DNA of 44,356 nt, from the sequence record QB031381.1; one strand, 5' to 3'. The stretch's first letter is position 1. Every line of letters begins with the position of its first letter. The notes beneath the pieces were generated by a model that saw only the letters and a list, made by a program, of their open reading frames with translations, was not told the DNA's origin and ran no database searches. Position numbers and translations under genes: made by a program. The DNA comes from a phage. This document shows, piece by piece, positions 2,484-37,626 of the stretch.

Positions 2484-2485
2484 CC

Positions 2486-3226: not shown

Positions 3227-3834
3227 CCACATTTAAATTATACGGCGTTTTAGGACGTCGATTCGGTAAAGTGCATAAGCTGGACTGCTTCACTCCGGGC
3301 GAGGGTATCACCGGCCTGTGCGTGAAGTTACCCGGCTTACAGGACTTTCTAATGTCGGCCCACCTTGACAATATGATGTTCAAGGTGCGCAAAGGCGACC
3401 ACACGATGACCGGCTATGATGAGCTGGGCGAGTTCCACGGCAACCGCGTCGTTACCATCGCGCCAGTTATGACTGGCGCAAAAAGGGGATTGGGACAATT
3501 GCTGGCTGGTGTCGCGATTGTGGTGGCGTCGTTCTATACGGGCGGACTTGCTACTGCCGCTTTCGGGGCTTCGGCGGCAACCGCTGCCGCAATCGGGACG
3601 GCGACGTTTTCGTTCGGCATGTCGCTTGCGCTGGGCGGTGCTATGCAATTGCTGTCCCCACAGCCAAAAGGATTGCAGACCCGGCAGGACGTGGATAACA
3701 AAGCGTCGTACGCGTTCGGCGGGCCAGTGAATACAACCGCGCAAGGCACGGCACTTGGTGTATTATGGGGAGAGCGTGAGATCGGCGGCGCTATTATTTC
3801 AGCCGGAATCGTAACCGAGGACTTGAACGAATGA
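3217..3834 (+). CDS. Tail assembly protein I-like
   Basis: 205 aa with a Gly/Ala-rich hydrophobic C-terminal half. Position between K-like and J-like genes. Confidence 0.55.
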   Translation: MAMTTFKLYGVLGRRFGKVHKLDCFTPGEGITGLCVKLPGLQDFLMSAHLDNMMFKVRKGDHTMTGYDELGEFHGNRVVTIAPVMTGAKRGLGQLLAGVAIVVASFYTGGLATAAFGASAATAAAIGTATFSFGMSLALGGAMQLLSPQPKGLQTRQDVDNKASYAFGGPVNTTAQGTALGVLWGEREIGGAIISAGIVTEDLNE

Positions 3835-7279: not shown

Positions 7280-7945
7280 TCAGTCATATTTAGTGGCATC
7301 TATCACAAGTATGGATGGCGAGTAATAAATGCCAAGCGGCCCCGGTGTGTGGGCTACTTGCTTAGATATCGAATAAATACTTGTCCCGGATGCGCCGGAT
7401 TGTGACTCGTAGATCGCGTGCCCGCCAATCTGAGGGGTGGGAACCGAGTTTATTGCCGTTTGTTGTGGTGATACAGCACATGTATACCCCAAATTAACAT
7501 CAAAAGACAGACCGTTTATCGGTATTTGGTGGGCCTCCAACGGCAACATTTTCCCGTGGTACACCATATCACCCGCAGAATTATAGAATGCGATCCCGTA
7601 GTCCCCCGGCGGTGTAACCATATCACTAAAAGCATAAACCTTAATCCATCCGGGGTTGTCGGTCTTGTCTAGCCGGAGAGCATGATAACCCCCGTTATTT
7701 ATGTGAGTGAATGCGGAGTACGCGCGCCCGCCCATCCTCACAAAGAAAAAGCACACGCGATCGAATGGTATTGGCGTTGTAAAAACAGAACCGCTATATA
7801 CACCCATATCACCGCGACTTATTAAATTAACAGGCGTAAATTCCGGGCTTAACCAAAGGGACCCATCTGGCTTTACAATCTGCATTCCGTACATGCTACC
7901 CCCAATACGTATATATAAATCTTGATACCCCAGCGTTAAAGCCAC
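7280..7945 (-). CDS. Hypothetical protein (GTG start; Gly/Tyr/Ser-rich)
   Basis: 221-aa ORF; the in-frame start at 7945 is GTG and overlaps the upstream ORF by 50 nt. Possibly the 3' part of a frameshifted gene. Confidence 0.4.
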   Translation of the reverse strand: MALTLGYQDLYIRIGGSMYGMQIVKPDGSLWLSPEFTPVNLISRGDMGVYSGSVFTTPIPFDRVCFFFVRMGGRAYSAFTHINNGGYHALRLDKTDNPGWIKVYAFSDMVTPPGDYGIAFYNSAGDMVYHGKMLPLEAHQIPINGLSFDVNLGYTCAVSPQQTAINSVPTPQIGGHAIYESQSGASGTSIYSISKQVAHTPGPLGIYYSPSILVIDATKYD

Positions 7946-8189
7946 TCCATGAAACAGTGTTATCGCTTACGGATATTGATGGCGCACCCCATGATGTGCC
8001 GCTCCATGTATGAGTCCCTACATATCCCGCCTTTAAACTTTTCCCCGGCGGCCGGTTGTAGTATGTCTTACTCCCGGATGGTTGCGTGAATTTGTCAAGG
8101 AAAAAAACCGGCGTTAGCAGGCCGGTAACATCTCGGCCTTGTCCGTCATAAATCGCGAACCCGTAGTTACTCACTTTTACACTCCACAA
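7896..8189 (-). CDS. Hypothetical protein
   Basis: 97-aa ORF overlapping the stop of the lipoprotein gene and the start of 7280..7945. Confidence 0.35.
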   Translation of the reverse strand: MWSVKVSNYGFAIYDGQGRDVTGLLTPVFFLDKFTQPSGSKTYYNRPPGKSLKAGYVGTHTWSGTSWGAPSISVSDNTVSWSGFNAGVSRFIYTYWG

Positions 8190-8436
8190 TTTTGAATTTA
8201 TCTTCGTTTTGCCATCTATGAACGAAAGTTACAAATTTCTGTGACGGGGATACCCGGTATTGTTTTTCTCCAAATCTATTTTCACGCACAGCGTTTAGTT
8301 TAACAGGATAGCTATCGTTTACAGGGAATGTTTTAACAACATATTGGCCTACGCAATCGACAGCCTTGTAGTTGCCGTCTTGTGACGCTGAGCAACCCGC
8401 CAAAAGAACCGCACAAATCATAATTAAGGTTTTCAT
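8167..8436 (-). CDS. Small lipoprotein (candidate Cor/Llp-like superinfection exclusion protein)
   Basis: N-terminal signal peptide with lipobox LLAGC (MKTLIMICAVLLAGCSAS), 89 aa. Encoded antisense between the J-like gene and the tail fibre gene. Confidence 0.55.
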   Translation of the reverse strand: MKTLIMICAVLLAGCSASQDGNYKAVDCVGQYVVKTFPVNDSYPVKLNAVRENRFGEKQYRVSPSQKFVTFVHRWQNEDKFKIVECKSE

Positions 8437-8515
8437 GGTATCATCTCCTATATTTGGTTGAGTTTAGTATTACACCGCTCGACCAGGATTGCAACCAATT
8501 TATGAGGATTCAGCT

Positions 8516-10339
8516 ATGGCAGCGGGTACACTATCCGTAACGAATAACAGCAAGGCGGTTGTCGGGGTGGGCACGACGTTTACCTCGTTTACAGCTGGCG
8601 ACTTCTTATCGCTGGTAGTGGGGCAAGTCCCATACACTGTTGCTATCGCGTCAGTCGAAAGCGACACCGCGCTTACGCTGGTGCTGCCGTTCGACGGCCC
8701 CACGGCAACGGGACTCGCGTGGGATGGCGTTAAGCGCGATACCATGTCGCTGGCAACGATGGGCGTAACAGTACAGGCGCAGAAAGCGTTGCGCTTGATG
8801 CTCGCGGACGAAAACAACTGGCGTGCGATCTTCGGAGACGAAGAAGAAATCACGGTAACGCTGCCGAACGGGCAAGTCATGCAGGGTATGTCGTGGGGCT
8901 ATCTGTCGCAATTGCTGAAGGAAGTTGACCCCGTTGAAATGCGCAACCTGCAACAACAAGCCGCGGCATCTGAAGCAGCAGCGCAAGGATTTCGCAATGA
9001 GGCCGAAGGCTTCAAGACTGAGACGGATGGCATTCGCGACGCCACCAATCAGATTAAGGCAGAAACGGCGGGCATTCGCGACGCCACTAATACCATCAAA
9101 ACGCAGACTGATCAGATTAAGGCTGATACGCAGGCGATCAAAGACCAGACTAACCAGATCAAGACTGACACCGGCGCTATTCGCGACGAGGCCAACGCCG
9201 CGAAGGCGGAAGCGCAAGCCGCCAGCACTGCCGCGCAGGGATTTCGCGATCAGGCCGAAGAATGGGCGCAAAGCGTAAACCCAGACAATCTGCTAACCAA
9301 ATCCGGCAACCTCGCCGGGCTTGCGGACAAAAGTGCGTCGTGGGCTAACCTTATGCCGTCAGGACCGCTTCGCGTAGGCGCGGACCCAGTCGACCCTCTT
9401 GACTCTGCGACTAAAGGGTGGGTGTGGCGCGGTCTTGATGACGTGGGGATTTGGGGTTTACGCAATAATTACGCTTCAGATCCGGCGAATGGCGCAGAAG
9501 TATACGGCGGTAGATTCGACTCATCTGTGACCGTTGCTGGGGCCGAAAAATACAGAACGTCGATTCAGCTTCAGGGGCGTAATAACGTAGACGCATGGAC
9601 CCGTTTGGCGACCGTTAACGTCCTCGACCCGGTGAACTCGCCGTCGTGGGACTTTAAATATGATGGTAGGCTTATTTTTTATAAAGCATTGTGGCCATCG
9701 TCCATTTCTGCGTCGCCTGTTAATACCTACGCGACCCTTCCTAATACCTGGATGGACAGCCAATACTCGGGCCATGTAGGTTTTGTCGGTGGCGGCGCTG
9801 GCACGGCGGGTGGTGGGTGGCGTAACTTCATTTCGTTCGGGGCGTTGATTCACCCCGTTGCGGGGTCATCACACCCTCACGCTATGATTTCGCAGGTCTT
9901 TGACTATGATCTGGCGACTGGAATGCAGCCTAACGCCGACATCGTTCGGAATACTACCTTTAACGCCGAGTCATACGATATTACCTTCGGCAACAACGCT
10001 GGGTCGGTTGGATATATTTTCGCAAAATCCCCGGTATCCGACAGGGCGCTGAAGCATGATATCGCCAGGATCGACACTCAAGTTGCGTTCGATAACGTTA
10101 TGGCAATGGAATACTCTTCCTTTGTTTATAACTACGACAAAAAGGAAACGGTCAGACGTGGTTTTATCGCGCAGCAGTTGGAAGAGATCGACCCGCAGTA
10201 TGTTCGTAAGTACACCAGCGCAACGGGTAAAGAGTTTCTGGCATTAGATGAAAACGTCCTTCTACTTGACCTTGTCGCGACTGTTCAGCATTTGGCGGCG
10301 AAGGTTGAGGCGTTAGAAAGTAAGTTAGCGGAGAAATAA
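8516..10339 (+). CDS. Tail fibre protein with C-terminal S74-type intramolecular chaperone/autoprotease domain
   Basis: The listed ORF starts at a TTG; the ATG at 8516 has a GAGGA RBS. Coiled-coil repeat region, then a C-terminal block beginning PVSDRALKHDIARID (Ser codon at 10037..10039) typical of self-cleaving fibre chaperone domains. Confidence 0.7.
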   Translation: MAAGTLSVTNNSKAVVGVGTTFTSFTAGDFLSLVVGQVPYTVAIASVESDTALTLVLPFDGPTATGLAWDGVKRDTMSLATMGVTVQAQKALRLMLADENNWRAIFGDEEEITVTLPNGQVMQGMSWGYLSQLLKEVDPVEMRNLQQQAAASEAAAQGFRNEAEGFKTETDGIRDATNQIKAETAGIRDATNTIKTQTDQIKADTQAIKDQTNQIKTDTGAIRDEANAAKAEAQAASTAAQGFRDQAEEWAQSVNPDNLLTKSGNLAGLADKSASWANLMPSGPLRVGADPVDPLDSATKGWVWRGLDDVGIWGLRNNYASDPANGAEVYGGRFDSSVTVAGAEKYRTSIQLQGRNNVDAWTRLATVNVLDPVNSPSWDFKYDGRLIFYKALWPSSISASPVNTYATLPNTWMDSQYSGHVGFVGGGAGTAGGGWRNFISFGALIHPVAGSSHPHAMISQVFDYDLATGMQPNADIVRNTTFNAESYDITFGNNAGSVGYIFAKSPVSDRALKHDIARIDTQVAFDNVMAMEYSSFVYNYDKKETVRRGFIAQQLEEIDPQYVRKYTSATGKEFLALDENVLLLDLVATVQHLAAKVEALESKLAEK

Positions 10340-11586: not shown

Positions 11587-11616
11587 ACTATAGTGCAACC
11601 AACCTATTGGTTGCAA
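11587..11616 (-). promoter_or_regulatory. Sigma70-like promoter overlapping a perfect inverted repeat
   Basis: Minus-strand reading: TTGCAA-N18-TATAGT. The spacer and -35 contain TGCAACCAA-CCTA-TTGGTTGCA (11594..11615). Confidence 0.45.
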
Positions 11617-12074
11617 GTGAATTTTGCAACGTTTATTGCGTAAATTTTCGGGACCAAATCACCACACGCCCGACGAATTGCCGCGATGTTCTTCTCGCAA
11701 TCTTCAATGATGACCAGTTCAGACACGTCCGCGTAACATACCATTTTGAACACGGCGCACGCTTTAAACTCAGGCGGCGGGGTGTCGTCCAACATGTGGC
11801 GCATAAACAACCGGCCTACCGGGAAGACCTCTAATTGCTCGGCGGTGGTGTCCCAACATTCTCGCTGCCGGTTGGTCAGATACGCGATCTCGAAGCCTTG
11901 CTCTTTATACATGCGCAGTAGCGGCAGCATATCCATGTTAAGGTCTTCGCGGACGTGCGCTTTGTGCCACTTCGCCCAAAAGGTGGATTTAGTTTTTATG
12001 CCAGGCACCAAGTCGGCACGCGCATCGCTTGAACCGTTAATAACGCCATCCAAATCGCAAATCAGTAATTTCAT
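11604..12074 (-). CDS. HAD-superfamily phosphatase (possible nucleotidase)
   Basis: N-terminal DxDGV motif (LICDLDGVIN) characteristic of HAD hydrolases; 156 aa. Confidence 0.6.
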   Translation of the reverse strand: MKLLICDLDGVINGSSDARADLVPGIKTKSTFWAKWHKAHVREDLNMDMLPLLRMYKEQGFEIAYLTNRQRECWDTTAEQLEVFPVGRLFMRHMLDDTPPPEFKACAVFKMVCYADVSELVIIEDCEKNIAAIRRACGDLVPKIYAINVAKFTCNQ

Positions 12075-12295
12075 TTTAAACTCTCAATAAGGGTGTAACG
12101 GGCGCTTCGCGCAGTAAAGGAGTTGCACACGAAATGGCAACGCTGAGTCATGACAAGCCAACCGGTGAGGTCAAGGCCCAGGATGTATTCGGGGCGAGAC
12201 GCGCGCACTACCCGATTGCGTCGCGGATCAATACAGTAGTCTCTTTGCATTTGGTCTACGACCGCGGGGTCGCGGTCAACGATTAAGATATTCAA
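12071..12295 (-). CDS. Hypothetical protein
   Basis: 74-aa ORF with start and stop overlapping flanking genes. Confidence 0.35.
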   Translation of the reverse strand: MNILIVDRDPAVVDQMQRDYCIDPRRNRVVRASRPEYILGLDLTGWLVMTQRCHFVCNSFTARSARYTLIESLK

Positions 12296-12761
12296 GGAGT
12301 TCTCCTTCGCTCATTATTTCAATTTGTGCGCTGCCGATGGGTGGCGCTTCGCCAAAGATTATCAATTGCTGGCACTTGTTATTGCTCGGCCCGACTTCAC
12401 CGGTGACGGCATGTATAAATCGGATCCGCCAGTCCAGAAGAATTATCAGGTTTGCAGTCTTCCGGGCCAACCGCGCCCACTTTGTCGACGTGTCCTGATT
12501 CAGTAGCATGACGGTCCGGCGTCCGTGCGCTGCGCACTTAACCCACGGCAGCGGATCGGAATACGGCGGGTTGCACCACTTCCACCCTTTCAACTCTGAC
12601 CAGTCCACATCGAGCGCGCTGTGCTCCGCCGTGAAGTAACGCGGTAGCAGGTGGTTGGCATCGCTCGCCGCCATGTCATAACGGAATCGGTACTTCCGGC
12701 GCAGCGGTTTAAATAAAGCTGGCGGCGTGCGCCAGCTATCTTTTTGCTCACTCTTCTTCAT
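12276..12761 (-). CDS. DNA N6-adenine methyltransferase (phage Dam-like)
   Basis: N-terminal WRTPP motif and NPPY catalytic motif (WCNPPYS) typical of small phage N6-adenine methyltransferases. Confidence 0.65.
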   Translation of the reverse strand: MKKSEQKDSWRTPPALFKPLRRKYRFRYDMAASDANHLLPRYFTAEHSALDVDWSELKGWKWCNPPYSDPLPWVKCAAHGRRTVMLLNQDTSTKWARLARKTANLIILLDWRIRFIHAVTGEVGPSNNKCQQLIIFGEAPPIGSAQIEIMSEGELLEYLNR

Positions 12762-16472: not shown

Positions 16473-16731
16473 CCAATAAATCACAGTCGGCTATGTTGTC
16501 GATGACGCGAACGTCCGCACCGCGGCGGGCCATTCGCTCATGTTCTCGTACCTGGTGCGGCTTCGGTTTGCCACCGGGGCGCTTCACTTCGACGAAAACT
16601 ATCTTGCCGTTGATGATGATAATCAGATCGGGCGCACCTGCGCGCCCCTCCCAAGCCACTTTGCGGCAGAATCCGCCGACGGCTTTCACCAGCTTCATAA
16701 GGTGACTTTGAATCTTGCCTTCTGGTGTCAT
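16453..16731 (-). CDS. VRR-NUC domain nuclease
   Basis: GAPDLIII...VEVK pattern (PD-(D/E)xK core) in a 92-aa protein; start overlaps the polymerase stop. Confidence 0.6.
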   Translation of the reverse strand: MTPEGKIQSHLMKLVKAVGGFCRKVAWEGRAGAPDLIIIINGKIVFVEVKRPGGKPKPHQVREHERMARRGADVRVIDNIADCDLLVAELVA

Positions 16732-19022
16732 TATTTTCTGTACCTATACATAATGTCGCCTTCCGCGGCAAGCGGGAAGCCTTTCGCCCAAACCGGCAGG
16801 TCGCACATCAGCGCGCACAACTCCTCGGTTGTGTAGTCGGCAGTATCCGGCACTTCGGTTATCAGTTCATCGTGTACGGACAGTACGATCTCATATCCAG
16901 CAGCTTCAACGCCCGGCATGGACCATGCGAGGATATCGCGACACAGCGCCTGCACGATGTTTTCCGTGAGTTTGCCGCCGTAGGTGTACTGGGATCCCCA
17001 CTGGCGCGTCGTCTGATTCTCACCCTGATATTTAATGCGGGTGCTGGTGCGTTTCTTGCCGGTATCTTCGTCGATCTCGGTCGTCACTGACAGCGCAATG
17101 CCTGGATAACTCATAATACGCCCCGACGGCAACTCAATTTTCAACCACCACCCCGCGGCGTTCGGGTCGTCGCGTTCCTCGTCGAAGGTTGGGTCATGCT
17201 TCGCCTTCGTGCGGACTATCTTGAGCGCTTTCTTTCCATCCGGGCGAACGTTCGCGCCCGCCCAGTACGCTTTGCCCGGATTGCGGATTGCACACAACAC
17301 CGCATCTTCCAGTTCGGCCCAAAAGGCTACCGTCTTCGGGTGAGCCTCGCGCCACATGCGTTTGATCGCGTCACACGTCAGCCATACGTTTTTCGGCAGT
17401 ATGTAAGTCGGGCGCTCGTCCTTCTTGCCCGGCTTCGGCGGTCGCTTCGCTTCGTTAATGCGGGCGTACTCATAACCACGTTTCGCCGCCGCCCAAATGT
17501 GATCGGGGAATGTGCCCTTCATCACGTCAGCCATCGCATAAAGGTCGAGGCCCAGGTTTTTAGCGAACTGCAAGAACGCAGCCACGCCACCACCATAGCC
17601 AAGGCCCAATTCGCACGCCTTACCGATCTGGCGTAAGTCTTTGCGGTTGGCTTTAATGTATTCCGGGTCGAGGCCGAACATTTTACCGGCAGTCTCACAA
17701 TAAATATCGCGACCGGCCCTAAACACCATTAGCGCGGTTTTCTCTCCAGCGATCCAGGCGAGGCCACGCCCTTCCACGTTGGAGTAGTCAGCCACGACAA
17801 ACTTCTTGCCCTTCGCCGGAATAATGCACCCGCGAACAGTCGAGGCCGTTAGCTTCGATATGTCATACGCCCAGTGCGCTGTCCCGCGTAACAGGGAGTT
17901 GATGCCGTTGGTGAGCATGTGCGACCGAACCCAAAAAGAAACGTCGCTCTCGCCATCCCGGCGCTTAATCTTCCCTTCGTGGTCGTCACTATACTCGCCG
18001 CGTGCCAGGTTTTGCGGCTGGAAGCCTTTACCAGCCCAGCGCAGCGTGCGCTTTGCCCCACCATACTGAAGACAACCACGGCGGCGACCATCGGAAGACA
18101 GGCCATTTACGAGCGGATTGTACTTAGTCGATGCCGTTGATGATGCCCCGAGGCGCATCTCGATAAGCACTTTGCCTTCGTCTGGGAAGTCCGGGTCTTC
18201 CAGCAGGTCGTTAAGTGTGGACTTCTGCGCGTTGTGGATCGTGAACGCAGGCGCGAGGTCGCGCAGCGCGGGCAAGAAGTCATTGCCGGTCAGCTTACCG
18301 CCGAAGCGCTCCCATGCTTCTTCCTTCAATTCTTCCTTATGCGCCTGTACCGCTTTGATCGCAGCGCGCGCCAGGTCGACGTCCACATAGAAGCCGCGGT
18401 CATTGATCAACTGGTCAATAAGCAGGATTTCGTCTTCCTTCGGCGTGTTGCCCCAGTCCGGTATGCGCCAATAGACTTCCCTCATAGCGATGATATCCAA
18501 CGCGGCATAGCGCAGGAATTTGGCCCATTCTTCTGGGTGAGTCTTGCGGGTGTAACGGCGGATTTTGTAGGTCTTAGGGGTAGGCTTACAGAATCGTTTG
18601 ATCAGCGCCTTGCCCGCCTTATCCTTCGCGTGCTCTGCGTCAACGCCCAACACCTGACACTGCATATCGAGGCTACCAGGCAACGCGTGCCGAAAGGCCA
18701 TAATCATGGTGTCTTCGATCTGGCACACTGGCAGGTCAATGCCCCACTTCTCGCGAATAACCAGGCGGTCAAACAGGAGGCCGTTAGCCATCACGATTTT
18801 TGCTTTCTTGCGGGATACCCGGCGGAGCGCCTTGCGCAGTTCACGCGGCATTGTGGGGGACTCGGTGCAATCCCACGTTTGCACGCGGCCCTCGTCGATG
18901 GCGTATGTGCAAATCATAATCTCGGTAGTTGGGTGTTCCGCGTAGGCGTACGCACCAACTTTCTTCAGGTCTACCCCGCTAAATGTCTCGGTGTCGAGAA
19001 ACAGGCGTTCGAAGTCTTTCAT
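16731..19022 (-). CDS. Family A DNA polymerase (PolI-like) with 3'-5' exonuclease domain
   Basis: Exo motif FLDTETF; polymerase motifs DYSNVEGR, KxxxLGLGYGGG and VHDEL; 763 aa. Confidence 0.85.
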   Translation of the reverse strand: MKDFERLFLDTETFSGVDLKKVGAYAYAEHPTTEIMICTYAIDEGRVQTWDCTESPTMPRELRKALRRVSRKKAKIVMANGLLFDRLVIREKWGIDLPVCQIEDTMIMAFRHALPGSLDMQCQVLGVDAEHAKDKAGKALIKRFCKPTPKTYKIRRYTRKTHPEEWAKFLRYAALDIIAMREVYWRIPDWGNTPKEDEILLIDQLINDRGFYVDVDLARAAIKAVQAHKEELKEEAWERFGGKLTGNDFLPALRDLAPAFTIHNAQKSTLNDLLEDPDFPDEGKVLIEMRLGASSTASTKYNPLVNGLSSDGRRRGCLQYGGAKRTLRWAGKGFQPQNLARGEYSDDHEGKIKRRDGESDVSFWVRSHMLTNGINSLLRGTAHWAYDISKLTASTVRGCIIPAKGKKFVVADYSNVEGRGLAWIAGEKTALMVFRAGRDIYCETAGKMFGLDPEYIKANRKDLRQIGKACELGLGYGGGVAAFLQFAKNLGLDLYAMADVMKGTFPDHIWAAAKRGYEYARINEAKRPPKPGKKDERPTYILPKNVWLTCDAIKRMWREAHPKTVAFWAELEDAVLCAIRNPGKAYWAGANVRPDGKKALKIVRTKAKHDPTFDEERDDPNAAGWWLKIELPSGRIMSYPGIALSVTTEIDEDTGKKRTSTRIKYQGENQTTRQWGSQYTYGGKLTENIVQALCRDILAWSMPGVEAAGYEIVLSVHDELITEVPDTADYTTEELCALMCDLPVWAKGFPLAAEGDIMYRYRK

Positions 19023-19195
19023 TGCTTAACCCTCACTACGGCGTCAGCGCTGCCGATCATGGAGAAGACGCCATCGGAAAGGGTAATCTCCTCGCCGTTG
19101 TTGCGAATCTCGGCAACTGTGAAATATTCTCCCAGCATTTTGGACCATACCTGCATTCCGACTTTTACTTTGCTGGCTTTAATACGCATTTTCAT
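19020..19195 (-). CDS. Small hypothetical protein, translationally coupled to the polymerase gene
   Basis: 58-aa ORF (MKMRIKASKVKVGMQVW...) below the 60-aa ORF-track cut-off; AGGA RBS; its stop overlaps the polymerase ATG. Confidence 0.35.
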
Positions 19196-19246
19196 TGTCC
19201 TATTAAAAAGCCCGCATTAAGCGGGCTTGAATAGTGGGCTTCGCCC

Positions 19247-20026
19247 TTAACGGCGGCGACGTTTACGTGGTGCTTCGTCTTCGTCGTCTTCGTCCTCATC
19301 TTCATCGTCGCGCGGCTTACGACGTTTACGAGGTTTTTCATCTTCGTCGTCGTCATCGCGGCGCTTGGACTTTTTGGACTTGCGCGGCTTGTCGTCTTCG
19401 TCATCGTCATCACGACGTTTTGACTTTTTGGACTTGCGTGGGCTTTCATCTTCGTCATCGTTGTCCAGGTCTTCGTCGGAGCAAGAAGACCCGCCACCGC
19501 CGAAGGCTTCGCCGTCATCACGGAAGCGCAGACCCAAAAGACCAGCACCGAGTCCCTTGCCGTTGGTATTGTTCCACGCCCAAATATCCAGGGACACATT
19601 GCAATAACAACCGGAGTAGATCTCCTGGCCTTCGATCTCGTCGCCTTCTACGGTCAGACCTTGTTCCGTCTGCTTCTCGCCGAGTGACGTTTGAATGATC
19701 GGCTGTTTGAACGATTTGGCGTTGATGTACAACATGCCTTCGAATTCTTCGGTTACTTCGTCGCGCTCGTCACCGTCGCGAACTGCGCATTCCTTAGAAT
19801 CCTGGGCGTAGTGGCGGTCCATCCACTTATCAGCATTCTTCTCGGATTTCAGCTTGTCGGTGAGCACTGCGCGCGCTGCCGCTTCCACTTTGTCCACCTG
19901 CGGATCTTCTTTATCAAGAATAATCACTGCACGGTATGCCGGTTTTTGACCATCCTGTTTAGGGGTATCGCGTTCCCAAATTTTAAGGAAACATACGCGC
20001 ACATTTTTCAGGTTGACTTTAGCCAT
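19247..20026 (-). CDS. Putative ssDNA-binding protein with a long charged repeat C-terminal extension
   Basis: Start MAKVNLKNVRV with GAGGAA RBS. Sits between the Cas4-like nuclease and the polymerase. Gly-rich linker then an acidic/basic repeat tail. Confidence 0.5.
   Translation of the reverse strand: MAKVNLKNVRVCFLKIWERDTPKQDGQKPAYRAVIILDKEDPQVDKVEAAARAVLTDKLKSEKNADKWMDRHYAQDSKECAVRDGDERDEVTEEFEGMLYINAKSFKQPIIQTSLGEKQTEQGLTVEGDEIEGQEIYSGCYCNVSLDIWAWNNTNGKGLGAGLLGLRFRDDGEAFGGGGSSCSDEDLDNDDEDESPRKSKKSKRRDDDDEDDKPRKSKKSKRRDDDDEDEKPRKRRKPRDDEDEDEDDEDEAPRKRRRR
19250..19460 (-). repeat. In-frame tandem repeat (about 51-nt period) encoding KPRKSKKSKRRDDDDED-type units
   Basis: Near-identical nucleotide units visible at 19362..19440; about 3.5 units at protein level. 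Confidence 0.7.
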
Positions 20027-20091
20027 TTTCCAATTCCTCATTCTCGCATGTATCGGGGTTATTATGAGCCACCCCGTTCGGCTTGGTTGCT

Positions 20092-20121
20092 AATCTACTT
20101 GGTTGCGCCTGGGTGGTCAAG
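20092..20121 (-). promoter_or_regulatory. Candidate promoter (TTGACC-N18-TAGATT) with two TTGGTTGC copies
   Basis: Motif copies at 20083..20090 and 20099..20106 upstream of the SSB-like gene. Confidence 0.3.
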
Positions 20122-20359
20122 CATTTTCATTAAAAAGATTTCGGGTCACGTAGTTGGTGGCGTTCTCGACCCAGCTTAGCGGCGGGCGTTCGATGTTCTT
20201 TTCCACCCAATAGACGGCAGCTTCGCTATAGCCGTCGTCCAGCCAGCGGGTCGGATGGCGAATCATCCAGGCCACCATTAACACGCCTTGCACACAATGC
20301 AGGATAAAGCCCAGTGCGCCGAGCAAAAACATCAATAAGATTGCGAATACTTTATTCAT
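20117..20359 (-). CDS. Small membrane protein
   Basis: N-terminal TM segment (FAILLMFLLGALGFILHCV); 80 aa. Confidence 0.4.
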   Translation of the reverse strand: MNKVFAILLMFLLGALGFILHCVQGVLMVAWMIRHPTRWLDDGYSEAAVYWVEKNIERPPLSWVENATNYVTRNLFNENA

Positions 20360-21782
20360 TGCTTAAGTCCTCGTCAGTAGCTTCCGACCACGCGGGGCGC
20401 GGGTCGTCGATGGGCGCTAATACCGGTTTAGCCGGTGCGCGGGTGATTTTATCACACAGCTTCGCCCACACTTTCGGTTTTTCGTCCTTCAGCACCTTCT
20501 CGGCATCTGTCGGGCTGAGCAATGTTTCTTTGTACATCACATCGCGCTTGATCCGGGCCTTCGTGAAGATTTCAATCACTTCGCTCTCGTCTGCCCACTT
20601 ACGGATCCCTTCCTTACCGGCAACCATCTTAAGGCCCAACGATTTGCCATCGCCCGCCATGACCGCCTTGAATACCGCGGATTCGATAGCTTTGATGTGC
20701 TGGCGCATTGCGTCAAGTCCTTCATAAGCCTTGCGCAGTTCCGCCGCGCTCATAGCGCCTGGGGTGGATTCCTTCTTGCCCCGTTTAGCACGTCGGGCAG
20801 CCTTCCGGGCTTCGCGGGCCATATTGCGGTCGTGGTTGGCGCACTCTTCCTCGGTTGCCACGCTCACGTCGTCGCCCAGGTCTTCGTCGGTTGCCGTTGG
20901 TGGCGTCATTGTGTCGATTGCGGCCTTCGCCCGGACGCTGCACTGGTCCGCAAATCTGCACCACTGGCACGCATCGACGCTGGGCCGGAAGTCGGCGCGG
21001 GTCAGTCCCTTCTTGCCACGGGCGTATGTATCGAGCGCGGCGATAGCACGCTTGGACGCAAACTTCGCGGATATCTCCAGCGCTTCCACTGAGATATCCC
21101 ACTCTGACGCCCCGCCGCAATACGGCTGGAAGATGACCAGGCGCACGGTCGTAATGTCATACATGGTTTGCAGCTTGCGCAGCAGGCCGAGCGCGTACAA
21201 CATAAGCTGTTTGTTTTCTTTCGCCTCGACCTTATGTCGCCCGGTCTTCAAGTCGCCAACAATCAGCATGTACGTGCCATCGGTCTTCTTCATGACCATG
21301 ACCATATCGGCAGTGCCGAACGTCTTAACCTTGTTACCGTCGATCTCGACTCCTGGGTGGAGGACGCGGGTGAGATCGGCGCGCATCTCAAGCTGGACAA
21401 ACTCCGCCACTTCGAGGAGCGGTCGCCAGTGGTCGATGTACGCGTCGCACTGTTTCACCATATCGTCGTTGACCAGTACGCCGCCTTTCGGTGCTTTCGG
21501 GTGCGCCTTTACTGGCCCCTTGCCTTCATTCTCGACGTAACATCCTTTATACGTCTTTGCTGTTATCAGCTTTTCACCGGCGATAATGCGGTTTAGCACC
21601 ACTTCAGATACGGTGTGCATACTCGTACCGTTAATCGCGGCTTGCCCGGATTCGTTCGGGATATCTTTTTCTACCACCAGGGCGGCGGGACACCCCATCC
21701 ATTTTTTAGCACCGGATGGGCCAAGTAATGAGTGTTCCGTATTGCTGCCGGATTGCGTTTTACGTTTTGGTTTAATCGCCAT
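20352..21782 (-). CDS. PD-(D/E)xK exonuclease, Cas4-like, with four-Cys cluster
   Basis: N-terminal SGAKKWMGCPA plus C-terminal CQWCRFADQC (C-x2-C-x5-C) gives a four-Cys arrangement like Cas4/AddB-type Fe-S nucleases; 476 aa. Confidence 0.6.
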   Translation of the reverse strand: MAIKPKRKTQSGSNTEHSLLGPSGAKKWMGCPAALVVEKDIPNESGQAAINGTSMHTVSEVVLNRIIAGEKLITAKTYKGCYVENEGKGPVKAHPKAPKGGVLVNDDMVKQCDAYIDHWRPLLEVAEFVQLEMRADLTRVLHPGVEIDGNKVKTFGTADMVMVMKKTDGTYMLIVGDLKTGRHKVEAKENKQLMLYALGLLRKLQTMYDITTVRLVIFQPYCGGASEWDISVEALEISAKFASKRAIAALDTYARGKKGLTRADFRPSVDACQWCRFADQCSVRAKAAIDTMTPPTATDEDLGDDVSVATEEECANHDRNMAREARKAARRAKRGKKESTPGAMSAAELRKAYEGLDAMRQHIKAIESAVFKAVMAGDGKSLGLKMVAGKEGIRKWADESEVIEIFTKARIKRDVMYKETLLSPTDAEKVLKDEKPKVWAKLCDKITRAPAKPVLAPIDDPRPAWSEATDEDLSNE

Positions 21783-28376: not shown

Positions 28377-28618
28377 TTATCTCCGTCCTGTTGTTTGTTA
28401 TCATCGGGGCTTCGTCCCTGTTTAACGTGTATGCGCCGTCCGTCCGGGATGGCATTTTCGGCCTGGTGCTGTATCTGTTAACGGCAATGGTCTGTATTAT
28501 CGGATTGTTGCAAACAGGAGACGTATCGGATACCACCTGGACCGCGTTAATCTGGCTGTTTGCATTGCGCACACTGCGTAATGCTGTTTTGAATGGGGTA
28601 AAACATGCGATTCAGTGA
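28373..28618 (+). CDS. Second small membrane protein of the lysis cassette (holin or antiholin-like)
   Basis: 81 aa, ATGA overlap with the upstream gene, multiple TM segments. Confidence 0.4.
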   Translation: MIISVLLFVIIGASSLFNVYAPSVRDGIFGLVLYLLTAMVCIIGLLQTGDVSDTTWTALIWLFALRTLRNAVLNGVKHAIQ

Positions 28619-29096
28619 CAACGGTCTGAGATTTACGGCAGCATGGGAGGCTTTCAGCCCGGTGCCGTATTTCGCGACCAAGAAAGAGCAGGCCCGTGGC
28701 CTGTACACCTGGGGTTATGGGCATACCGGCACTAATCCGCCACGAAGCATTACCCGTGCAGAAGCGCTGGAGCTACTCAAGCGCGATGTGGCGTATGCCG
28801 AAGACTGGGTAAACAAATACGCGCATCCGAGCATTAATCAAGCGCAATTCGACGCGCTGGTGGATCTGGTAATCAATGCCGGTCCGGGTCCGATCGTACC
28901 GGATGACGTAGCGAATGATTTCGATGATGCGGTGCGACTGGGAGACTGGGCGAAGGTCCGTGCTACGCTGCCGCTGTTCCGCAAGCAAGGCGGGGAAGTG
29001 CTTAAGGGTCTGGTGCGCCGTGCAATCGGCAGACAGGCGTTATTTGATGGTAAGCAGTGGGACGTTGCCGAGCGAATCGGTCGTAACGCAGCATAA
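28605..29096 (+). CDS. Endolysin, T4-lysozyme-like (GH24-type)
   Basis: E-x8-Y...TWGYGHTG pattern characteristic of phage lysozymes; 163 aa. Confidence 0.7.
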   Translation: MRFSDNGLRFTAAWEAFSPVPYFATKKEQARGLYTWGYGHTGTNPPRSITRAEALELLKRDVAYAEDWVNKYAHPSINQAQFDALVDLVINAGPGPIVPDDVANDFDDAVRLGDWAKVRATLPLFRKQGGEVLKGLVRRAIGRQALFDGKQWDVAERIGRNAA

Positions 29097-30645: not shown

Positions 30646-31197
30646 ATGGCAGAAATCAAAGTTAAGGGCCGACGCGCCAAACTGGACGGACGAGTAGCAG
30701 TAACCCCGCGCCGTAAACCCGGCGAGCAAACCGAGCATACCAATCTCGGACCTGAAATCGAGTACGGAAAGCGCCGTAAAGGCGGCAAATGTGGACGCCC
30801 TACTGACTACCGATCCGTTTACTGTGACCAGCTTCGCCGCTATTTTGCCGACGCCGACGCCTGGCAGGTCAACTACTCCGATAAAGGCGCTGCGCAAGTA
30901 ATCCCCCGCAACAAAATGCCAACCTTCGGTCGATTTGCCGCGGAAATCGGCGTGGGCGTAGCTTGCCTGTATCGCTGGGCGCGTGCGCATGAGGAGTTCG
31001 CTGAGGCGATGGCGGACGCAATGGAGTTACAAAAAACCTTCCTGATGGAAGCTGGCGGCGTGACCATCGCGGCAGGCTTCGCTACATTCCTGCTTAAAGC
31101 AAACCACGGCGTCCGCGACGATGTGCCGCTGGATGACGACGAAGATGATAACGGCGACGTCGTAGTGGAACCTTCCGGCAAAGGCCAGGGTGAATAA
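30646..31197 (+). CDS. Terminase small subunit
   Basis: 183 aa directly upstream of the large subunit with an overlapping stop/start; HTH-like RFAAEIGVGVACLYRWARAH; acidic C-terminus. Confidence 0.55.
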   Translation: MAEIKVKGRRAKLDGRVAVTPRRKPGEQTEHTNLGPEIEYGKRRKGGKCGRPTDYRSVYCDQLRRYFADADAWQVNYSDKGAAQVIPRNKMPTFGRFAAEIGVGVACLYRWARAHEEFAEAMADAMELQKTFLMEAGGVTIAAGFATFLLKANHGVRDDVPLDDDEDDNGDVVVEPSGKGQGE

Positions 31198-34114: not shown

Positions 34115-35201
34115 TCAATATATGGCGGATCGAATGATCCGCCGACACATCTTCACCCAGCGCCTGAGTAATGACCAGGCGCGAAGGGTGTTGGCTATGT
34201 GGGAGAAGTTCCGGCCCACGTTACTGGGTAAGCTGACCGAGTTACTTGATGGCAAAAAGACCATGAGTAACAAGGCACTTACCACACTGTTGACGCAACT
34301 GGACAAGACCGTCAAAACGGAACTGCGCACCGAGTTTAAGGCGTTAGCTGAAAGCCTTCAGGAGTTTGCCGACACGGAGGCTGATTATCTCACCGACACA
34401 TTAACGGCAGCGATCCAGCCGGTGGTCGCTGTACCTGCGGTCGAGGTGGTTGGCGTAGTGACCGGTGCGCAGATCGCAGCGACGGCAATGAAAAACCCGT
34501 TTCAGGGCAATACCCTGATGCAATGGCCCGATTCACTTTCAGAATGGGCCAGAACGCAGATCGGCAATCAGGTGCGCGCCGGATTCATCCAGGGCAAGCC
34601 GACTATGGAAATTATAGCGGACGTGAGGCGCGCGCTCGGCGGTCGTAGTGCGCAAGCTATCTCAAGCGTTGTTAAGTCGGCAGTCAACCACTATGCGGCG
34701 ACCGCCCGCGAACTAATGGTAAAAGCAAATGACGATATTCTCGAAGGTCGCCAATGGTTATCTACATTGGACACGCATACTTCTCCCATGTGCCAGCTAC
34801 GCGATCGCCTGTTTTATCCGGTTGATGTTACTCCCGACACCAAAGGAAAGCGCGGCGGGAAAATGGTGGCTGGGTCACAATATGGCGCTGGTCCGGGAAA
34901 GTTGCATTATTGTTGCCGGTCGACGGAGACGTGGAAGGTTAAAGGCATGGAAGATTGGCCCAGTGGTAAGCGTCCGGCACTGAAGGCTGATGCGGGCCGA
35001 TTGCTGAGTGAGCAGGTCGACGCGCAGACTGATTTCTTCTCATGGGTGCAGCGCCAGCCGCGCCATATCCTGGAAGAATTATACGGGGTGCAACGCGCCG
35101 ACCAGATTATGCGCGGCGTGAAAGTCCCGAAGATGTTCACCGATTCAGGCGAACTAATGACTATTGCGCAGCTTAAAAACCGGGGGTTATGGCGTGATTA
35201 A
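34098..35201 (+). CDS. Head morphogenesis protein (Mu F / SPP1 gp7-like)
   Basis: Signature TLDTHTSPMCQLRDRLF; located after the portal gene. Confidence 0.65.
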   Translation: MAKTINQYMADRMIRRHIFTQRLSNDQARRVLAMWEKFRPTLLGKLTELLDGKKTMSNKALTTLLTQLDKTVKTELRTEFKALAESLQEFADTEADYLTDTLTAAIQPVVAVPAVEVVGVVTGAQIAATAMKNPFQGNTLMQWPDSLSEWARTQIGNQVRAGFIQGKPTMEIIADVRRALGGRSAQAISSVVKSAVNHYAATARELMVKANDDILEGRQWLSTLDTHTSPMCQLRDRLFYPVDVTPDTKGKRGGKMVAGSQYGAGPGKLHYCCRSTETWKVKGMEDWPSGKRPALKADAGRLLSEQVDAQTDFFSWVQRQPRHILEELYGVQRADQIMRGVKVPKMFTDSGELMTIAQLKNRGLWRD

Positions 35202-35523
35202 GTATGCGGCTATTGGACTGGTTATAGGTCTGGCGGTAGGATTCTGGCTTGGTGACTCCTATCGCGCTGGCGTAGTGGCTGAGGCGGCGCAAGAAGCGCA
35301 AGCCGAAGCCCAACGGCAGCAAACTAAAGTAATTGAGCGCTCCGTGCAGGCAGAACAAGCCCGCGACGTGGAATACCGGACTATCACAAAAGAGGTTGTA
35401 AAATATGTTACGCGCCCTAACCGCCCTGATTGTAGTTTTGACGCTGAGCGCGTGCGGATCAAGCAGCGTGCCGTTGATGCCGCTAACGGAGTCGGCACTG
35501 CGACCGCCGTGCAAGTTCGATAA
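35164..35523 (+). CDS. i-spanin (Rz-like)
   Basis: N-terminal TM (IKYAAIGLVIGLAVGFWLG) then a charged coiled-coil region. An o-spanin ORF overlaps it in another frame. Start may be the GTG at 35194. Confidence 0.5.
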   Translation: MRSLKTGGYGVIKYAAIGLVIGLAVGFWLGDSYRAGVVAEAAQEAQAEAQRQQTKVIERSVQAEQARDVEYRTITKEVVKYVTRPNRPDCSFDAERVRIKQRAVDAANGVGTATAVQVR

Positions 35524-35635
35524 CCCGTCTGCGGACCCCGACGAAGATTTGATGATTGACGTTAAAAATATGGAATGTGGGGCGAAGCTGAGGGCGCAGG
35601 TGTTGGAGTTGCAGCAAATAATTAAGGGGCCGTAA
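35405..35635 (+). CDS. o-spanin (Rz1-like outer-membrane lipoprotein)
   Basis: Signal peptide with lipobox LTLSAC, Pro-rich mature part; begins inside the i-spanin gene in a different frame. Confidence 0.55.
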   Translation: MLRALTALIVVLTLSACGSSSVPLMPLTESALRPPCKFDNPSADPDEDLMIDVKNMECGAKLRAQVLELQQIIKGP

Positions 35636-35645
35636 TGGCCCCTTT
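35618..35645. terminator. Terminator hairpin between convergent genes
   Basis: AAGGGGCC-GTAA-TGGCCCCTTTTCGTT between the o-spanin stop and the stop of minus-strand gene 35649..36413. Confidence 0.5.
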
Positions 35646-35648
35646 TCG

Positions 35649-36413
35649 TTAGCGCGGAATACCGCAAATCTCGTTGAGAGTTTTCACGTCCAGCGCCACC
35701 GCCGTGGATTTTTGCTTGTCCTGGTATGGTATGAATTGCTCAACTTCAGGCCATGCCTTAATCAGCTTCTTGTCAGTATTGTGCAGGTCCAGCACACCGG
35801 TAACGGTGAGTTTGAACGCGTCATACTTCGCACGCAACTCGCGACGTGCCTTGTCGTTGCGGTCCATGCGCTTACAGAAGTCATGGTCCGCCGGGTAGTC
35901 TACGCGACCGCGTGGGAGATATATCGGCAGCGCTTTCCCTTCCTCGTCCACTTCGCACACTGACGCGAGCATAACTGTCTCGAACCCCGGAACGATATCG
36001 CCGAGATCAGGCGAGAGCTTATTCATATATTTCTCTTCCCAGTATCCGCGATGTACGCGGTATTGGCGACCGTCGCCGCTCAAGGACAAGGTGCGAACAT
36101 TGCCGCCTGCGTTGATTTCAAAGGTGGCATCGTAAACGCTGCCGATACCCTTCGGGCGGTCGGTGTTATAACTATACGTCGCCTTGTTGGTGTATACGCT
36201 GACGCCGTACATCTGCGACTGGTCATCGCGGATTGCCTTGATATGCTCGCGGAGCGCTGCGAACGTGCGAATGCCTTCCGGCATACAGTCCAGCGTGATT
36301 GCGTACGCCAGATCGCGTGAGTCCATCATGATTTGTTTGGCTTCGGTAGCGATTTCGTGGTCGCGCAGGATGTTAGCTAGGATCTGATTTTTAATGTCTT
36401 TCGTCAGTCTCAT
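35649..36413 (-). CDS. Hypothetical protein (antisense moron gene 1)
   Basis: 254-aa ORF with GAGGA RBS, opposite in orientation to all flanking structural genes; no recognisable motifs. Confidence 0.5.
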   Translation of the reverse strand: MRLTKDIKNQILANILRDHEIATEAKQIMMDSRDLAYAITLDCMPEGIRTFAALREHIKAIRDDQSQMYGVSVYTNKATYSYNTDRPKGIGSVYDATFEINAGGNVRTLSLSGDGRQYRVHRGYWEEKYMNKLSPDLGDIVPGFETVMLASVCEVDEEGKALPIYLPRGRVDYPADHDFCKRMDRNDKARRELRAKYDAFKLTVTGVLDLHNTDKKLIKAWPEVEQFIPYQDKQKSTAVALDVKTLNEICGIPR

Positions 36414-36452
36414 TTTTATGTCCTCATTTTATGGGCTTTCGCCCCGATTGGT

Positions 36453-36767
36453 TTAGTTGAATTTGATGTTACCACCGGTGGAAGTTAAGCGGGCACATAC
36501 AGCTTCAACGGCATCGACGCACATGAAATCGTTAAAGGCTTCGACCAGGGCGTTTATGAAAGATGCCGGAACCAGGCCGCAAGCCGGATTATCGAATGTC
36601 GCGGAGTTGATCGCCGCTTTCGCCGCTTCAGAAGCATTCATGCTCTGGCACAGATTCAGCGCTTCCGCGTTACGCATTGCGTGAAAGGTAAAGGTATTCG
36701 CTACGGTAGCTTTATTGAAACGGGCCATTGCGGCGTCTACTGGAGTTGCTACGGTCATGTTAGTCAT
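36453..36767 (-). CDS. Hypothetical protein (antisense moron gene 2)
   Basis: Internal ATG (MTNMTVATPV) with GAAGGAAG RBS, downstream of a conserved promoter; 104 aa. Confidence 0.45.
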   Translation of the reverse strand: MTNMTVATPVDAAMARFNKATVANTFTFHAMRNAEALNLCQSMNASEAAKAAINSATFDNPACGLVPASFINALVEAFNDFMCVDAVEAVCARLTSTGGNIKFN

Positions 36768-36802
36768 TTTGTCTTCCTTCATATCTCTGTTGGTGTGCAA
36801 CC

Positions 36803-36832
36803 AATATAATGCGACCAACGTCTGCAATGCAA
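36803..36832 (-). promoter_or_regulatory. Sigma70-like promoter (TTGCAT-N18-TATATT) followed by GGTTGCACACCAA
   Basis: Minus-strand sequence TATATTGGTTGCACACCAA is identical to the 19-mer at promoter 26238..26256. Confidence 0.5.
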
Positions 36833-36921
36833 GCGAATTTTGCGATTATTTTTATCGCTGATAATATTAAGGCGTGAAGTCAAGCGGGTGGCCCGCTTTG
36901 CCACAATCCCAGGGGGATAGC

Positions 36922-37626
36922 ATGAAACTTACTAAAGCAGAATATGACGCGTTGCCGGAAGGTATGAAGGGGCTTTTTGTCGCCGATGGTGACGGGTACA
37001 AATCAACGTTCATGACCGCCGAAGAAGTACAGGCGGAGATCAAGGGTCTGAAAGACAACAACGCGAAGCTGGTTAGCGAGAAGAAAGCAGAAGCCGAACG
37101 TCGCGCCGAAGCTGAGCGCCTTGCGAAAGAGAAAGAGGAAGCCGCCGCGCGCAAAAACGGCGACCTCGAAGCGATCGATAAGTCCTGGAAAGATAAGTTT
37201 GCGAAACACGAAGCAGACACATCGGGAAAAATCGAAGCCTACCGCAAGCAGATCCACGACCTAACCATCGGCAGCGCTGCCAAAGATCTGGCGTCGAAGC
37301 TGTTCGGTAAGAATGCCGGAATCATGCAACGCCACGTTATGGACCGCCTCACGCTGGAAGACGGCGAAGACGGCAGCTTAAAAGTGCGTGTCTTGCAGGA
37401 TGGCAAACCGTCCGCGCTGACTATGGAAGAGCTTGAAAAAGAGTTCCGTAATAACCCCGATTTTGCATCTGTCCTGGCGGGCACGCCAGCCGGTGGTGCG
37501 CCTAGCAAACCTACGCAGGTTGTCGAAGATGTGAAGTCTAAAATCACTATGGGCCACAGCTTCGGCATCACTGACCTGACGAAACAGGCGGGTGAAATCA
37601 TCGCTAAGATGGGCGACGACGAGTAA
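36922..37626 (+). CDS. Putative scaffolding protein
   Basis: ATG with AGGGGGA RBS; 234 aa, highly charged coiled-coil; immediately upstream of the major capsid gene. Confidence 0.5.
   Translation: MKLTKAEYDALPEGMKGLFVADGDGYKSTFMTAEEVQAEIKGLKDNNAKLVSEKKAEAERRAEAERLAKEKEEAAARKNGDLEAIDKSWKDKFAKHEADTSGKIEAYRKQIHDLTIGSAAKDLASKLFGKNAGIMQRHVMDRLTLEDGEDGSLKVRVLQDGKPSALTMEELEKEFRNNPDFASVLAGTPAGGAPSKPTQVVEDVKSKITMGHSFGITDLTKQAGEIIAKMGDDE

Follow-up and report, generated by a model that had tools for sequence, protein, structure and literature searches.

The 44,356-nucleotide phage sequence QB031381.1 (the whole of which is called the window below) carries, at positions 35,649 to 36,832, two minus-strand genes that encode proteins of 254 and 104 amino acids (aa) and lie within a head-gene cluster of opposite orientation. 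An initial annotation, made from the sequence alone, had described these genes as an antisense two-gene unit with its own promoter and terminator, situated between the spanin genes and the scaffold gene, and had taken the unit for a moron. Here we confirm this anatomy at the sequence level, identify the larger gene as nmad5, which encodes a member of the Nmad5 protein family, and weigh hypotheses regarding its function.

Anatomy of the cassette

The region belongs to the genus Dhillonvirus, siphophages of Escherichia coli, and its best match is phage SSL-2009a (96.6% identity over this region). A 2.2-kb query across the locus matched 155 phage records, nearly all of them Escherichia phages of this genus. 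In the RefSeq record of SSL-2009a, genes for terminase, portal, head morphogenesis and two overlapping Rz-like spanins are followed by two minus-strand hypothetical proteins, the head scaffolding protein and the major head protein. In the window, the overlapping i-spanin and o-spanin genes (35194..35635, plus strand) are followed by nmad5 (35649..36413, minus strand; 254 aa; Pfam PF18757, phrog_1965) and by a 104-aa accessory gene (36453..36767, minus strand; phrog_24635, no Pfam family).

Both minus-strand open reading frames (ORFs) are real genes under purifying selection. Ratios of nonsynonymous to synonymous substitution (dN/dS), calculated by the Nei-Gojobori method, are 0.08-0.17 for the 254-aa gene in comparison with other Dhillonviruses; for the 104-aa gene they are 0-0.04 within the genus and 0.14-0.26 in comparison with distant homologues. 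A mechanical ORF list prolongs the 104-aa frame to a TTG at 36827, but we prefer the ATG that begins eight bases after the ribosome-binding site GAAGGAAG (36773..36780, minus strand). The ribosome-binding site of nmad5 is GAGGAC (36420..36425, minus strand), and it is kept in genomes with and without the 104-aa gene.

The leftward promoter (36803..36832, minus strand) consists of a -35 hexamer TTGCAT at 36827..36832, an 18-nt spacer and a -10 hexamer TATATT at 36803..36808, and transcription is predicted to start near 36796. The initial annotation had placed the promoter at exactly these coordinates. The element is identical base for base in four Dhillonviruses whose Nmad5 proteins share 64-89% identity, including genomes without the 104-aa gene.

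A motif, ATTGGTTGCA, occurs at 36796..36805, where it overlaps the -10 hexamer and the predicted +1, inside an imperfect palindrome, TTGGTTGCACACCAA (36790..36804; together 36790..36805, minus strand). A degenerate second copy, GTTGGTCGCA, is found in the promoter spacer (36810..36819, minus strand), and other Dhillonviruses have tandem perfect copies. The motif is enriched, with 16 sites at no more than one mismatch compared with 3.6 expected, a count reached by none of 100 shuffled sequences. Sites in the window include those at 8490, 11594/11606, 13509/13526, 16468, 22990, 25804/25839, 26119, 26210/26241, 26949 and 36796. Exact copies are mostly intergenic and lie in the early/replication part (8.5-27 kb), plus one at this cassette; the copy at 8490 is an exception in that it heads a minus-strand cassette between tail genes. 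Copies provide a -35 hexamer, TTGCAA or TTGCAT, that has a TATAAT-like hexamer 16-18 nt on, or else a second copy lies over the -10/+1. Often they stand in tandem or as palindromes (TGCAACCAAT-AG-GTTGGTTGCA at 11594-11615, for instance), and their positions are conserved in phage PNS1. Edwardsiella phage eiAU-183 has two exact copies, one of which is directly upstream of the gene for its SSB, the protein that binds single-stranded DNA. Judging from this distribution, ATTGGTTGCA is a shared regulatory element of early-region promoters, and it could be a -35 variant alone or could also be an operator for a phage regulator. The cassette promoter is, by its sequence, of the early-gene type, unlike the late operon around it.

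The exceptional copy at 8490 belongs to a second antisense cassette in the structural region (7280..8436, minus strand; three ORFs of 89, 97 and 221 aa). This cassette is headed by ATTGGTTGCA-N16-TAATAC, and PNS1 is arranged differently here. With a gpJ-like tail-tip gene (3831..7253) on one side and, on the other, the next tail-fibre gene (8489..10339), it is probably, by its position downstream of gpJ, the variable receptor-binding-protein locus of the BASEL paper.

At the distal end of the nmad5 unit, where the initial annotation had called a hairpin, we find a bidirectional intrinsic terminator with an 8-bp GC-rich stem, AAGGGGCC-loop-GGCCCCTT (35624..35644, both strands), supported by a terminator scan and by folding. 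Folding energies are -18.7 kcal/mol on the minus strand and -20.1 kcal/mol on the plus strand (z approximately -3), and T-runs are present on both strands; therefore, the terminator also serves the converging o-spanin transcript.

On the other side, a putative divergent rightward promoter, TTGCGA-N16-TAATAT (36840..36867, plus strand), would transcribe the scaffold and capsid genes and is conserved in four other Dhillonviruses. A palindrome, GCGAT-N7-ATCGC (36842..36858), lies between the divergent promoters, in the spacer of the putative scaffold promoter. In phage LM40P1, both of its arms are altered together (GTGAT-N7-ATCAC) and symmetry is retained, by a single paired change. The palindrome could be a protein-binding site. 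Rfam gave no match on either strand of 35000..37500.

Optional cargo and the origin of the cassette

Comparison with related genomes shows that the 104-aa gene is variable, whereas nmad5 is present in most Dhillonvirus records. DNA search detected the former in about 60 records and protein search in 72 (the latter including phages outside the genus), or roughly 40-50% of records; for nmad5, the corresponding numbers are 141 phage records and, at full length, 147. In phages KS_S9, Bas15 (PaulFeyerabend), BF9 and LM40P1, which do not have the 104-aa gene, the promoter is followed by the nmad5 ribosome-binding site after about 20 nt. Alignment with these genomes defines a clean indel of 360 bp in the 5' leader of nmad5 (36429..36788, minus strand), which enters a few bases 3' of the predicted transcription start. 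The block contains the gene, its own ribosome-binding site and, just 3' of the gene, a small GNRA hairpin, GGGGCGAAAGCCC (36433..36445, minus strand), of weak predicted stability (-8.1 kcal/mol, z -1.8).

Homologues of the 104-aa protein with 57-64% identity are encoded by Pantoea phage AAM37 and by members of the Ackermannviridae, in arrays of small genes. In three unrelated phages, a short GC-rich hairpin of differing sequence lies within about 10 nt 3' of the homologue; the hairpins in AAM37 and in Ackermannviridae phage ZQ1 are at 3815..3858 and 3285..3331 of the retrieved stretches. The mobile unit may therefore be the 104-aa gene together with its hairpin. The family forms 10 clusters in 5.8 billion proteins, and the 104-aa protein had no match in Pfam, NCBIfam, PADLOC or the Protein Data Bank (PDB). 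Invariant in it are the residues H29, C63, C83 and C91 and also the motifs DNPACGLVP and FMCVD, and its AlphaFold2 model is poor (predicted local distance difference test score, pLDDT, 59.7). Nucleotide identity with phage JLBYU60 is 98.7% for the 104-aa gene versus 90.1% for nmad5, and with phage BMA1 it is 99.0% versus 91.1%. The lower divergence of the 104-aa gene in the same genomes fits either recent spread or strong constraint.

By capsid protein, the nearest relatives outside the genus are eiAU-183 (59.7% identity) and Klebsiella phage NewHawk (44%). Both have contiguous genes for terminase, portal, head morphogenesis, scaffold and capsid, with a gap of 33-87 bp between head morphogenesis and scaffold. 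Therefore, a block of about 1.7 kb in Dhillonvirus is, relative to these genera, an insertion into the head module, comprising the spanins as one half and, beyond them, the terminator, nmad5 (whether or not the 104-aa gene accompanies it) and the divergent promoters. To this extent, the proposal of a moron stands, since the spanins and the cassette are missing from the collinear head modules of the sister genera.

The source of nmad5 is suggested by Eiauvirus, the nearest sister genus found. The eiAU-183 genome is collinear with those of Dhillonvirus and also encodes an Nmad5 member, eiAU gp32 (213 aa; match to the Nmad5 profile with E = 8.6e-57). However, gp32 lies outside the head module, among small forward-strand genes between the primase-helicase gene and the lysis cassette, whereas Dhillonvirus nmad5 is inside the head module on the minus strand. 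Because Eiauvirus keeps Nmad5 among its early/middle genes, nmad5 appears to have been relocated rather than acquired. Most simply, a resident early/middle gene would have moved into the head module and become inverted in an ancestor of Dhillonvirus, and would have kept or gained an early-type promoter. The Dhillonvirus spanin genes stand after the head-morphogenesis gene, with roughly 6 kb between them and the endolysin gene (28605..29096), and the Eiauvirus spanin gene (30676..31161 of the Eiauvirus stretch) is grouped with the genes for holins and endolysin. It may be that nmad5 reached the head module in one move with the spanins.

The Nmad5 family

The initial annotation could assign motifs to neither protein, which proved wrong for the larger one. 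Residues 1-253 of the 254-aa protein match profile positions 1-206 of 206 in Pfam family PF18757, Nmad5 (213.1 bits, cut-off 27; E = 5.7e-63), and the protein also matches phrog_1965 (E = 1.8e-63). PF18757 is the "nucleotide modification associated domain 5", a name that we take to rest on neighbourhood with nucleotide- or DNA-modification genes.

Among 55 aligned homologues, a diverse set that reaches down to about 22% identity, L217, L246 and N247 are invariant, and nothing else is. G104, T213, W221, P222, P229, G251 and P253 are near-invariant (at least 90%) and are all present in the window protein, which also has the family signature of an N-terminal RLT..I...I..NA helix and a C-terminal TxxKLxEAWPE ... 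LNxxxGLP segment. An ADH motif is partly conserved and is replaced in many members. As far as the alignment can indicate, such a pattern marks a fold and a surface for binding rather than an active site. The family's isoelectric points are scattered around 7, so that Nmad5 is not a DNA mimic of the acidic kind, nor a DNA binder of strongly basic character.

The AlphaFold2 model of Nmad5 (pLDDT 90.5; predicted template-modelling score, pTM, 0.83) predicts a long stalk of antiparallel helices (20-42 and 178-209) and a four-stranded beta insertion, and places the conserved motif on a C-terminal cluster of short helices. Fold comparison found no recognisable enzyme fold and no solved structural relative. 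Searches of PDB sequences with both cassette proteins and both family profiles gave chance-level matches only (for example, a lipoyl domain, E = 0.04). We considered LNxxxGLP as a beta-clamp-binding motif and dropped this candidate, because the glutamine position is unconserved and the segment is predicted to be helical.

Carriers of Nmad5 include Dhillonvirus, Stx-converting and other lambdoid phages, Yuavirus, and Vibrio and Bordetella phages. In every other lineage examined, early, replication or recombination regions hold the gene, which is co-directional with them. On four independent metagenomic phage contigs, it is just upstream of the gene for DNA polymerase A (PolA). Three of these have the order DUF2800 exonuclease, Enc34-type SSB, Nmad5, zero to two small ORFs and PolA; on the fourth, Nmad5 is next to PolA and the contig ends. 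The Yuavirus gene is 2.4 kb upstream of PolA. The pL operon of lambdoid phage mEp235 has the gene between N/Nun and cIII, and Rad52-like, SSB and exonuclease genes are downstream of it. In Vibrio phages and at other loci, Nmad5 belongs to arrays of small early genes, and at one locus it stands between a RecE-like gene and a replication initiator. In Hungariovirus C130_2, it is immediately upstream of holin and endolysin. At one metagenomic locus that recalls Dhillonvirus, it occupies an accessory gap between terminase genes and oppositely oriented MuF/portal genes.

The window itself has a DUF2800-SSB-PolA module (16731..21782, minus strand), as does eiAU. In the window module, Pfam scans identified a DUF2800 PD-(D/E)XK exonuclease (20352..21782, minus strand), an Enc34-type SSB (19247..20041, minus strand) and DNA polymerase A (16731..19022, minus strand). 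The SSB-PolA gap of the window, where several metagenomic phages hold Nmad5, is empty.

The association with modification genes that the family name implies is found in Yuavirus but not in the lambdoid, Vibrio or metagenomic loci. In the window, nmad5 is flanked by spanin and scaffold genes, and the nearest modification gene encodes a Dam-type methylase (12276..12761). None of the genes for 5-hydroxymethyldeoxyuridine (5-hmdU) synthesis and use (dUMP hydroxymethylase, 5-hmdU DNA kinase, aGPT-Pplase) is annotated in close relatives, and a Pfam scan of the window's ten larger early-region ORFs found none either.

Nmad5 has already been studied in this genus. Yamashita et al. (2025, Commun Biol, PMC11846954) report that mutants of phages SMA8 and SMS22 that escape Tmn carry the nmad5 substitution K216E (K296E in SMS22), and that reverting the mutation brings Tmn sensitivity back. 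Deletion of nmad5 is viable and does not confer escape, and cloning of the gene failed, with apparent toxicity. The authors call Nmad5 a DNA modification enzyme, for which they rely on its Pfam name. The SMA8/SMS22 gene is an ortholog that encodes 254 aa and lies "near the capsid gene", as it does here, and nucleotide identity to SM_S22 is about 87%. In the window protein, K216 stands in the same DKKL context. The SM_S22 record annotates an nmad5 coding sequence of 334 aa (1501..2505 of the retrieved stretch), which is over-extended by 80 codons, across the intergenic region and into the opposite-strand scaffold gene. Since the real SM_S22 gene has 254 codons, K296E in SMS22 equals K216E in SMA8. 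The traits reported there (deletable, unclonable, escape by K216E/K296E) should transfer to the window phage. Two relatives have truncated genes: Teewinot (OK499993.1 / NC_073053.1) has the first 38 or so nmad5 codons left, and JL1 (NC_019419.2) about the first 54. These are spontaneous deletions in which the promoter-proximal end is retained, and they agree with the dispensability of nmad5.

We also considered the cassette as a known Dhillonvirus immune trigger or inhibitor locus and rejected this idea, because Ksap1, the RAZR trigger and anti-Tmn are all located outside it. Ksap1 (74 aa), the trigger of KpAvs2, is encoded between methylase and phosphatase genes (PMC11564622), and the portal protein is what triggers RAZR. 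No SECphi18 escape mutation in nmad5 is mentioned in the main text, as searched, of the Stokar-Avihail escaper study. A 74-aa ORF in the window (12071..12295, minus strand), between the Dam-type methylase gene and a HAD-phosphatase-like gene (11604..12074), agrees in position and size with Ksap1, the Klebsiella Avs2 activator (PMC11564622), and is a candidate by position only.

Function of Nmad5 and comparison with known systems

At the sequence level, the cassette is an autonomous leftward transcription unit embedded, in opposite orientation, in the Dhillonvirus head-gene cluster. Its constant cargo is Nmad5, which is dispensable, and in about 40-50% of records its leader has received the 104-aa insertion. 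From neighbourhood and conservation, we infer that Nmad5 may be a non-catalytic, early-expressed accessory factor of phage DNA replication or recombination and not a DNA-modifying enzyme. It would probably bind a putative partner, be it a component of the replisome or SSB, DNA, or a host protein, through its most conserved surface, formed by the N-terminal helix and the C-terminal TxxKLxEAWPE...LNxxxGLP module with K216, and K216E at that surface would alter how Tmn perceives the infected cell. The 104-aa protein would be an independent, horizontally mobile accessory, possibly metal-binding, that borrows the nmad5 promoter. We hold this explanation as a whole, including its well-supported anatomy and evolutionary history, with moderate confidence. 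The assignment of Nmad5 to replication is itself more tentative, being our working choice rather than a firm expectation.

Several observations weigh against this proposal. The argument for replication comes entirely from gene neighbourhood, and no phage polymerase lies near the gene in lambdoid and several Vibrio-phage contexts. Early expression has the shared promoter motif as its sole basis. A strict sigma-70 scan of 35000..37400 returned no promoter, because the weak -35 hexamer TTGCAT agrees with TTGACA at only three of six positions; we retained the promoter call because the element is conserved across genomes. Catalysis is strictly possible even where 55 sequences lack invariant catalytic residues. 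The Cys and His residues of the 104-aa protein hint at metal binding, which is a guess given its poor structure model. Finally, the cloning failure, the gain-of-function escape from Tmn and the stand-alone unit would suit a host-directed or anti-defence effector about equally well.

Such an effector, expressed early and inhibiting a host protein by binding it, with the 104-aa gene as a second, swappable counter-defence gene, is in our view somewhat less likely than the replication role. A stand-alone promoter-terminator unit next to a variable slot is what such genes might occupy, and the lambdoid Nmad5 in the N-cIII accessory region of the pL operon, the Vibrio-phage genes in small early-gene arrays and the absence of enzyme-like conservation are in keeping with it. 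So are the reported dispensability and apparent toxicity of nmad5, and the escape from Tmn by a substitution in the most conserved motif but not by deletion, which resembles altered binding specificity (PMC11846954). However, SMA8 and SMS22 without anti-Tmn carry wild-type Nmad5 and stay Tmn-sensitive. The family has been retained over deep divergence (about 25% identity), and a fixed position, such as it has between SSB and PolA in several lineages, is not usual among anti-defence genes, which turn over fast. Neither protein had a match in PADLOC or NCBIfam, although the defence libraries searched do not cover anti-defence proteins.

An enzymatic role, with Nmad5 as a DNA- or nucleotide-modification enzyme or its obligatory subunit and Tmn sensing the modified DNA, seems to us improbable. 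It has in its favour the Pfam family name, the Yuavirus/M6-like gene beside 5-hmdU kinase and dUMP hydroxymethylase, and the DNA methyltransferases that Dhillonvirus, eiAU and C130_2 all encode elsewhere in their genomes. However, the family has no invariant polar or catalytic residues, and its lambdoid and Dhillonvirus carriers have no hypermodification genes adjoining nmad5. Thymidine hypermodification of M6 was reconstituted in vitro with gp51-gp54 alone, without Nmad5 (PMC8989533), and Dhillonviruses are restriction-sensitive in comparison with the deazaguanine-modified Queuovirinae (PMC8594841). The reported result that nmad5 deletion leaves Tmn sensitivity unchanged (PMC11846954) also speaks against Tmn sensing a modification made by Nmad5.

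Similarly doubtful is a role in transcription timing, in which a coiled-coil Nmad5 at the early/late boundary would bind RNA polymerase or a regulator and tune expression. The predicted stalk with its globular head, the proximity to N/Nun in the lambdoid phage and to a pRha-type regulator at one locus, and the plausibility of both cloning failure and escape through altered timing are compatible with this idea, but Nmad5 has no DNA-binding or polymerase-binding motif, and the neighbourhood evidence is thinner than that for replication. That one or both proteins are head-assembly or virion components, as their position inside the head module and the metagenomic locus between terminase and portal/MuF genes might suggest, is close to refuted and highly improbable: the genes have an early-type promoter on the strand opposite to the head genes, sister genera (eiAU-183, NewHawk) build homologous heads with nothing at this position, Nmad5 lies in early or replication regions in other lineages examined, nmad5 is deletable (PMC11846954) and naturally truncated in Teewinot and JL1, and the 104-aa gene is missing from roughly half of the genus.

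If the replication-factor proposal were extended, Nmad5 might be the first member of a structurally new class of non-enzymatic phage proteins on the replication/recombination machinery that set how the infection is perceived by abortive-infection sensors such as the KAP-NTPase Tmn. The promoter-proximal slot might then receive small, exchangeable counter-defence genes, and the one for the Cys/His-rich 104-aa protein would be an example. We regard this broader idea as speculative and rather unlikely.

The larger gene, nmad5, encodes a known, named and recently studied family member that is conserved across the genus. Compared with the covered sections of PMC11846954, our analysis disfavours catalysis and adds the promoter, the terminator, the 104-aa indel and the relocation relative to Eiauvirus, which are absent from those sections. 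New elements are the evidence that the label "DNA modification enzyme" is probably wrong, the link of Nmad5 to the DUF2800/SSB/PolA module, and the reconstruction of the origin of the cassette. The first of these matters because Nmad5 is widespread and a nucleotide-modification label taken from its name is now repeated in the defence-system literature. Moreover, a single conserved surface residue governs escape from the poorly understood Tmn and might provide a handle on what Tmn senses. For annotation, an early-type unit splits the head operon, the 104-aa gene is optional, and the 334-aa annotation in SM_S22 is an artefact.

A comparison within the genus is with anti-Tmn (ORF35 of SMS22), which, like nmad5, is a Dhillonvirus accessory gene tied to Tmn (PMC11846954). 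However, it has a different locus and predicted fold, and its wild type inhibits Tmn, whereas Nmad5 acts via one substitution. Within the protein family, the Yuavirus/M6-like Pseudomonas phages have a gene whose product is 37-41% identical in the C-terminal 80 or so residues and which is near PolA and co-directional with early DNA-metabolism genes. That gene adjoins those for 5-hmdU kinase and dUMP hydroxymethylase, whereas Dhillonvirus has no nucleotide-modification gene within about 23 kb of nmad5; the beta-rich insertion in the middle of the Dhillonvirus protein is also some 40-50 residues larger.

Morons, a concept of Hendrix and Juhala from lambdoid phages, are autonomous promoter-gene-terminator units inserted between late genes. 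The Dhillonvirus cassette resembles them in having a predicted promoter and terminator of its own and in lying between genes that are adjacent in relatives. It differs from them in that its main gene, nmad5, occurs across most of the genus and probably came to its place by relocation and not by import, and in that its GC content is not clearly foreign (0.47-0.56, compared with 0.52-0.61 in the flanks). Also, Dhillonvirus is virulent, so that, unlike with lambdoid morons, there is no lysogen in which a host phenotype could appear. The initial reading of the cassette as a moron therefore holds in one part, the 104-aa gene, a 360-bp presence/absence insertion found in about 60 of 141 records and with homologues in unrelated phages (Pantoea phage AAM37 and the Ackermannviridae), and fails for nmad5, which most of the genus carries and which stands elsewhere in Eiauvirus. 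In the strict sense, the term "moron" fits the 104-aa gene only.

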